Source: Escherichia phage 92CQ. Taken from it: a stretch of DNA of 64,000 bases. The notes beneath the pieces are model-generated. The model saw only the letters and a program-made list of their open reading frames with translations, was not told the DNA's origin and did not search any database. Below, one piece after another: positions 32,610 through 33,161 of this stretch. The stretch's first letter is position 1, and each line of letters opens with the position of its first letter. A program made the position numbers and the translations under genes. The stretch is taken from the sequence record PV682554.1, one strand, 5' to 3'.

Positions 32610-33161
32610 ATGCAAAACACCGATCTGACTTGGATAGAAGCCAAAGAAGCAATGTTAAAAGGCAAACGCGTTAAACATAAATACTTTTGCGAAGGCGAAT
32701 GGTTTGAAATGCGTAACCGATCCCTTGTAGATGAAAAAGGGAATGACATGGGACAATGGTTCAAAAATGAAATTTGGCAGGGGACAGGTTGGTCTATAGT
32801 TGAAGAGCAGCCTAGCCCAAGCGCACTGTTTAGCCCTATTATGTATCGCGTTATCGGTACTTTAGTTGTTGATCACGGAATTGCAGTGGAAAAAGAATGC
32901 TGGGAAAAGGTATCTTTTTTCAACCTTGCTTCTTATGCAAAAAGCCATATGCACTTGTTTGAAGAAGGGGATGAATTTGTTCTTCGTATGCGATACGGCA
33001 AAGAATTCAGATTACCACTTGATAACGATGTAGACACTGTTGTAAAATGGTTAGCAGAGCATTATGCTTACGATGCAATTTGTGGTCGCAGCTTCGGCAA
33101 CGAACGCTGGGACATGATTTGTGAAAAATATGATTTTGAGCCGGAATACGGAGTTTTATAA
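32610..33161 (+). CDS. protein with N-terminal DUF2829/Tad2-like motif (183 aa from ATG with GGAGA RBS)
   Basis: N-terminus LTWIEAKEAMLKGKRVKHKYF...EWFEM resembles the DUF2829 (Thoeris anti-defence Tad2 family) signature as recalled; not confirmed. Confidence 0.45.
   Translation: MQNTDLTWIEAKEAMLKGKRVKHKYFCEGEWFEMRNRSLVDEKGNDMGQWFKNEIWQGTGWSIVEEQPSPSALFSPIMYRVIGTLVVDHGIAVEKECWEKVSFFNLASYAKSHMHLFEEGDEFVLRMRYGKEFRLPLDNDVDTVVKWLAEHYAYDAICGRSFGNERWDMICEKYDFEPEYGVL

Follow-up and report, generated by a model that had tools for sequence, protein, structure and literature searches.

What does the first gene of a small plus-strand block in Escherichia phage 92CQ encode, and could its product take up a nucleotide signal of the host? 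The window analysed here is a stretch of 64,000 nucleotides from this phage (record PV682554.1), and the gene is an open reading frame (ORF) of 183 amino acids (aa) on the + strand (32610..33161; ATG 32610, TAA 33159-33161). A preliminary description, made from the DNA letters by themselves, proposed that the protein opens with a domain of the Tad2 (DUF2829) type, a family of phage proteins that sequester nucleotide signals, and that about 100 further residues follow. The ORF is a real gene with a strong Shine-Dalgarno sequence, GAGAGGAG (32594..32601, + strand, 8 nt 5' of the ATG), and its N-terminus, MQNTDLTWIEAKEAMLKGKRVKHKYFCEGEWFEM, is exactly as quoted in that description. Residues 1-64, referred to below as the N-module (32610..32801, +), form a minimal Tad2-like domain of the phrog_3474 family and are very probably a remote homologue of the Tad2 fold; the canonical Tad2 ligand motifs are lost from it. 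The part after this domain amounts to about 110 residues, near the number described, and is a distinct module with a distribution of its own.

Homology of the N-module to Tad2

SPO1 Tad2 (gp34.65; PF11195/DUF2829; Protein Data Bank (PDB) entries 8SME/8SMF/8SMG and 8WJE) is, like the N-module protein, a small phage-encoded protein, and both contain the helix motif aromatic-x-E-A-x-x-A-x-x-x-G-K-K/R-V-x-R/H. The likeness to this signature, as given in the preliminary description, extends to 15 of its 16 positions, the single miss being L16, which is a lysine in Tad2. When the mismatching position is freed, the motif occurs once in the 55,374 residues of ORFs read in all six frames of the window, at the N-module. 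An antiparallel sheet after the helix and a final ‘W-x-I-V’ strand are likewise common to both.

Comparison at the level of families also links the N-module to Tad2. A phmmer search run exhaustively against 1.84 billion representatives returned 48 matches, and after exclusion of three repeat artefacts (P0002, P0006 and P0021) an alignment of 32 matches and the query was built (33 sequences, A1). PF11195, whose Pfam gathering threshold is 25 bits, is matched below that threshold by eight of the 33 members (best expect value (E) 0.0028) and is the sole Pfam family matched by more than two of them. When the A1 profile was run against PDB sequences, SptTad2, ModTad2 and Tad2 were within the top four (E 0.3-1.2). 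Alignment of A1 by hhalign to a profile of seven verified PF11195 proteins (A2) gave a probability of 82.8% untrimmed and of 92.8% (E 4e-7) after trimming. Against this alignment's score of 37.6, 300 column-shuffled decoys averaged ~10 (standard deviation ~2.3, maximum 18.2), none of them reaching half of it, and the reversed profile scored 10.2. The PHROG families connect the two groups reciprocally: the query matches phrog_2709 at E 4e-4, a family that SPO1-type Tad2 matches over its full length (E 1.7e-10), and phrog_3474 is in turn matched by a true PF11195 protein (E 3.8e-5). By these profile comparisons, the similarity between the N-module and Tad2 is beyond chance. Used as a single sequence, the query yielded noise only in a PDB search, and the N-module had no match in NCBIfam.

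The predicted structure points the same way. AlphaFold2, run with templates off, models the N-module with a mean predicted local distance difference test (pLDDT) score of 84.9, and places a helix at residues 8-16, strands at 20-23, 32-35 and 38-41, a short helix at 55-58 and a strand at 61-64. In the model, the N-terminal helix packs against an antiparallel beta sheet, the arrangement that defines the Tad2 fold. In a Foldseek search of 350,542 PDB chains, its top five matches are all SPO1 Tad2, with template modelling (TM) scores of 0.55-0.61, probabilities of at most 0.94 and E-values of 0.3-1.4, and the first unrelated matches have TM scores of ~0.2-0.3. The model of the C-terminal module, which served as a negative control in the same search, found no match. 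Of the two findings that the preliminary description had named as counting against a Tad2-like domain, a failed profile search and an unrelated predicted fold, the former was obtained and the latter was not. The claim thus stands for fold and remote homology, through Foldseek, hhalign and the reciprocal PHROG matches, and falls for membership of PF11195.

The three excluded sequences illustrate how summed repeat matches can top such lists. P0002 (5991 aa), the top match at E 9e-40, is a repeat protein whose score sums 29 matches of at most 8 bits each, falling on a ‘CEGEW...SLVD.CGN’ repeat; P0006 and P0021 are repeat proteins or repeat translations, again with summed matches of at most 8 bits. 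TadIV-1 (T4 vs.3) was also rejected as a relative, being an unrelated two-helix dimer. Four motif strings, the canonical Tad2 tail motif among them, had no match in the supplementary files of a survey of 2,783 homologues (10.1101/2025.08.24.671296), and the literature searched contained no link between Tad2 and phi92-like phages.

Modular architecture and a lineage-specific fusion

PHROG profiles divide the protein at residues 69/73. Residues 1-69 match phrog_3474 (E 4.1e-25, profile positions 2-63 of 64) and phrog_22208 (E 5.5e-26), and residues 73-182 match phrog_11295 (E 5.1e-50, profile positions 1-109 of 110); because all three families are labelled ‘unknown function’, membership gives no mechanism. 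Between the N-module and the C-module (residues 73-183, 32826..33158, +) lies a linker, EEQPSPSA (residues 65-72, 32802..32825, +), which is rich in proline and serine and has low pLDDT, and stand-alone N-module proteins stop at about this point.

Each module occurs as a gene of its own. The N-module (residues ~5-65) is found alone as genes of 60-65 aa in Klebsiella T4-like phages, T5-like phages, Chaseviridae and other enterobacterial phages, and in T4-like and T5-like phages these homologues sit amid small hypothetical accessory genes. The C-module is found alone as a gene of 110-114 aa in Phapecoctavirus, ESCO8 and Klebsiella phage FKP3, and its family is limited to Stephanstirmvirinae-type phages. 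The fusion of the two is confined to the phi92-like clade: tblastn of the 183-aa protein against 50,697 phage records recovered the full-length ORF in only 31, at 94-100% identity, and gp217 of phi92 is its orthologue (98% identity). A sequencing error was rejected as the source of the fusion, since 31 independent genome records carry it. Stand-alone C-modules begin MFSKEM or MFSPIMY, the window reads ...PSPSA-LFSPIMY, and the start methionine of the stand-alone genes corresponds to L73, encoded by CTG. The former start codon is now CTG, and the fusion is therefore a lineage-specific read-through.

Downstream, the fusion gene's TAA and the ATG that opens an 83-aa gene (phrog_4868; 33161..33412, +) overlap in the sequence TAATG (33159-33163). 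The same overlap of C-module stop and 83-aa start is found in all relatives examined (loci L003, L010, L011, L012 and L013), and its conservation suggests that translation of the C-module and of the 83-aa protein is coupled and that the two may function jointly. For the C-module, an AlphaFold model from a three-sequence alignment (pLDDT 67.4) predicts, in order, two helices, three strands and two helices, and had no match in a Foldseek fold search; searches of Pfam, NCBIfam, PADLOC and PDB profiles found no match either. A Pfam scan of ten C-module homologues at E<=1 gave scattered noise and neither PF13876 (Acb4) nor PF21825 (Sequestin).

These two families are pertinent in that Tad2 is often fused to other sponge domains, a habit that led to the discovery of Sequestin (10.1101/2025.07.12.664507). 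Acb4-Tad2 of Pasteurella phage Pm86 and the Tad2-Sequestin (PF21825) fusions are likewise built from a Tad2 domain, a short linker and a second domain, and that second domain exists stand-alone elsewhere, as does phrog_11295 here (10.1101/2025.07.12.664507). The present protein differs in its partner, which is neither Acb4 nor Sequestin, and in its Tad2-type domain, which is non-canonical.

Other arrangements of the modules were observed in passing. In ESCO8 (L003, 1982-3339 compared with 31835-33161 of the window), a block comprising the N-module, the intergenic region, the DUF7325 gene and a 117-aa gene is inverted; a decayed 48-aa N-module remnant lies on the opposite strand, and the C-module is a stand-alone gene. 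N-module homologues P0003, P0010, P0011, P0030 and P0047 have differing C-terminal extensions with a common basic tail, KGKGHNKL[KQ]K[GR]KKK, and the 175-aa P0017 consists of two tandem N-modules. The 64-kb window holds no second copy of the N-module and no canonical Tad2. A word-indexed homologue search with a 72-aa N-module query found no match, and with the full protein or the C-module as query its sole matches were phi92 gp217 and a single protein of 62% identity; scans of IMG/VR returned only near-identical or Stephanstirmvirinae loci. In phage records, relatives of the N-module are nearly all annotated ‘hypothetical protein’, with two matches under capsid-protein annotations, and the 183-aa protein itself is a ‘hypothetical protein’ in every annotated record among the matches listed.

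Ligand motifs and the possible roles of the protein

In SPO1 Tad2, the pocket for gcADPR, a cyclic ADP-ribose, is made by W25 and N26 of a GWNG loop and by W73, S76, T78 and D79 of a SQTDxLAEDW tail. Substitution of the corresponding residues of HgmTad2 (W21A/N22A and S90A/T92A/D93A) abolishes binding, and cyclic dinucleotides bind HgmTad2 in its beta2-beta5 insertion. GWNG and LAEDW are retained by all solved Tad2 proteins regardless of ligand, including HgmTad2 (AcrIIA7, PDB 8KBI) and ModTad2 (PDB 9EIB, a His-ADPR complex), whereas the N-module has neither.

Several observations weigh against a signal sponge at this locus. The 183-aa protein has zero matches in Pfam at E<=10, PF11195 included, while seven control Tad2 proteins all match PF11195 at E<=1e-24; membership of that family by the Pfam threshold is not supported. 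The motif GW[NG]G is found in none of the 33 N-module family members compared with six of seven true Tad2 proteins, and LAxDW in none compared with all seven, so that the ligand residues on which the proposed sponge would depend, in the GWNG loop and the SQTDxLAEDW tail, are missing throughout the family. Equivalents of N26, S76, T78, D79 and the HgmTad2 binding residues are not conserved: R22 of SPO1 Tad2 is replaced by H23 and W25 by F26, N26 is not kept, the D79 equivalent in the query is isoleucine, and the tail reads ExWQxxGW. The N-module is also without the beta2-beta3 insertion and helix alpha2, its strands 32-35 and 38-41 being connected by a tight, helix-free turn, and measures ~62 aa compared with 85-105 aa in Tad2 (89 aa in SPO1 Tad2, a difference of ~25). 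In Tad2, alpha2 and the insertion form the V-dimer interface and, in long forms such as HgmTad2 and ModTad2, a second pocket that takes cyclic dinucleotides or cUMP and that the N-module lacks; the Tad2 tetramer therefore may not form. The family is acidic (isoelectric point (pI) mostly 4.4-5.9), as true Tad2 proteins are (5.0-6.6), residue mapping in the C-terminal half of the N-module comes from a low-confidence global profile alignment, and the functional annotation of the neighbouring genes is uninformative on the role of the protein. With Pfam membership and three sequence-defined Tad2 features (loop, tail and insertion) all absent, a sponge function can only be proposed conditionally.

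What the family has kept is a set of residues of its own. The signature H-x-x-F-x-x-x-E-[WYF] is present in 31 of the 33 members and W-x-x-x-G-W in 23; by position, H23 is conserved in 28, F26 in 30, E30 in 31, G60 in 30 and W61 in 31. The residues aligned to the Tad2 beta1-beta2 loop are H23, F26 and C/T/S27. Profile alignment places F26 (phenylalanine in 30/33) at Tad2 W25 and, with low confidence, W50 (tryptophan in 20/33) at W73; W50 and the G60-W61 pair are matched with W73 and D84-W85 only in the low-confidence global alignment. This mapping indicates that an aromatic clamp may persist, and that the polar contacts do not.

One could ask whether the resemblance is genuine at all, that is, whether a small alpha+beta domain came to look like Tad2 by convergence or chance, with no common ancestry or mechanism. 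Small domains are able to converge on one fold, the Foldseek E-values are those given above, and the hidden Markov model (HMM) links made with single sequences are weak, with E from 4e-4 to 1.2. Yet no Tad2 structure was released before 2023 and templates were off, so copying by AlphaFold2 is unlikely; the training cut-off of AlphaFold2 precedes that release. We regard convergence as very improbable. At the opposite extreme, the literal reading of the preliminary description is a Tad2 like any other: a sponge for 3'cADPR/2'cADPR, blocking type I Thoeris as SPO1 Tad2 does. The fold, the N-terminal helix motif and the aromatic residues at the W25- and W73-equivalent positions agree with it, but there is no PF11195 match, every one of the polar contacts N26, S76, T78 and D79 is gone together with both motifs, and the shortened domain has no helix alpha2, which leaves this reading improbable.

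A further alternative is a Tad2-type fold that serves merely as an oligomerisation or protein-binding module, binds no nucleotide and has some other role together with the C-module and the 83-aa protein. Such a scaffold would suit a family in which all 33 members have lost the canonical ligand motifs and the insertion, and in which the domain is promiscuous, being joined to the C-module, to extensions with a basic tail (KGKGHNKLxKxKKK) or to itself in tandem, as expected of a generic oligomerising module; moreover, the C-module and the 83-aa gene stay closely coupled whether or not the N-module is present. Against this, H23, F26, E30 and W61 are conserved outside the hydrophobic core, a pattern that suits a pocket better, F26 and W50 align with the two tryptophans by which Tad2 clamps its ligand, and the known Tad2 fusions unite two active sponges. 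We consider a pure scaffold doubtful, and tentatively put forward, with slightly less than even confidence, a minimal domain of the Tad2 type that associates with itself and captures a nucleotide signal with changed specificity, and whose fusion partner may have a second counter-defence function.

On this proposal, a phi92-like coliphage encodes, in an accessory region of small hypothetical genes, a two-module protein that may be expressed early. Its residues 1-64, a divergent and minimal Tad2 homologue with an N-terminal helix and a small antiparallel sheet, would self-associate via helix alpha1, by analogy with Tad2, and so create aromatic-lined pockets between protomers, for which H23, F26, E30, W50, W56 and W61 are candidate residues on the same analogy. 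The tandem N-modules of P0017 are what a dimer with an interface pocket might predict. A small host signal of nucleotide type would be sequestered in the pockets, the specificity of which would differ from that of SPO1 Tad2 for 3'cADPR. The C-module, normally a gene of its own, was joined by read-through, with its start methionine changed to leucine, in the phi92-like clade; probably coupled in translation to the 83-aa partner, it may add a second counter-defence activity, as in the Tad2-Acb4 and Tad2-Sequestin fusions. Among the relatives of Tad2, binding of 3'cADPR, His-ADPR, N7-cADPR, cUMP/cCMP and cyclic dinucleotides is known (10.1101/2025.08.24.671296), and this plasticity of ligand, the frequency of sponge fusions, the conserved aromatic positions and the accessory-gene setting of the stand-alone homologues make a sponge role plausible. 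A broader version, in which the N-module family is an unrecognised minimal Tad2 clade spanning enterobacterial T4-like, T5-like, Chaseviridae and phi92-like phages, with a new pocket of H23, F26, E30 and W50/W61, and in which phrog_11295, perhaps with the 83-aa protein, is a new counter-defence or sponge family, open to discovery by the ‘fused to Tad2’ reasoning that uncovered Sequestin, seems to us unlikely in its entirety.

The question matters beyond this phage. No other known family of phage sponges for immune signals is as versatile as Tad2, and its surveys take PF11195-type sequence homology as their starting point, with a threshold that lies above the N-module family. If the minimal domain binds a signal, it would represent the smallest functional core of the Tad2 fold and a new solution to ligand recognition, and would supply counter-defence candidates in well-studied groups of coliphages and Klebsiella phages that are used for therapy, phages of the BASEL collection included. 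Through the fusion, phrog_11295 also becomes a candidate anti-defence domain. If nucleotides are not bound, the family would clearly exemplify the reuse of a sponge fold for another purpose.

Genomic setting

The 96-aa neighbour upstream, a DUF7325 protein (32200..32490), is encoded on the - strand in divergent orientation, and the 183-aa gene therefore heads the + strand block. The preliminary description had placed the gene first after a divergent promoter, and its position past a divergent intergenic region is as stated. The promoter is weakly supported by the sequence: a candidate of sigma-70 type (32550..32577, +) was recognised by eye, with a perfect TTGACA (32550-32555), a 16-nt spacer and an extended -10 element, TGcTAATCT (32569-32577), and a rule-based promoter scan of the divergent intergenic region called none, because the -10 hexamer fits at just three of six positions.

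Beyond the 83-aa gene, the + strand block continues with two small proteins of unassigned role (57 aa and 145 aa) and an AAA-type ATPase of 375 aa (PF00004; phrog_2376; 34071-35198, +), which lies downstream of the C-module in all relatives. The ATPase is labelled ‘FtsH-like protease’ or ‘Zn metalloprotease’ in some records, and a protease domain was not detected in it. At the end of the block, a 329-aa protein with CapR homology and a T5orf172 domain (phrog_681, ‘endonuclease’; 35273-36262, +) is probably homing-endonuclease-like or DNA-binding.

The window as a whole shares 97-98% identity with ~146-kb phi92-like E. coli myoviruses, among them ESCO9, arall, muut and alia, which are members of Justusliebigvirus, a genus in the subfamily Stephanstirmvirinae. 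Four records named ‘Campylobacter phage’ (MG065639, MG065645, MG065656 and MG065689; A150, A145, C3 and A110a) are 97.5% identical to the phi92-like region, and either their C. jejuni host label is wrong or the isolates were contaminated, as seems probable.
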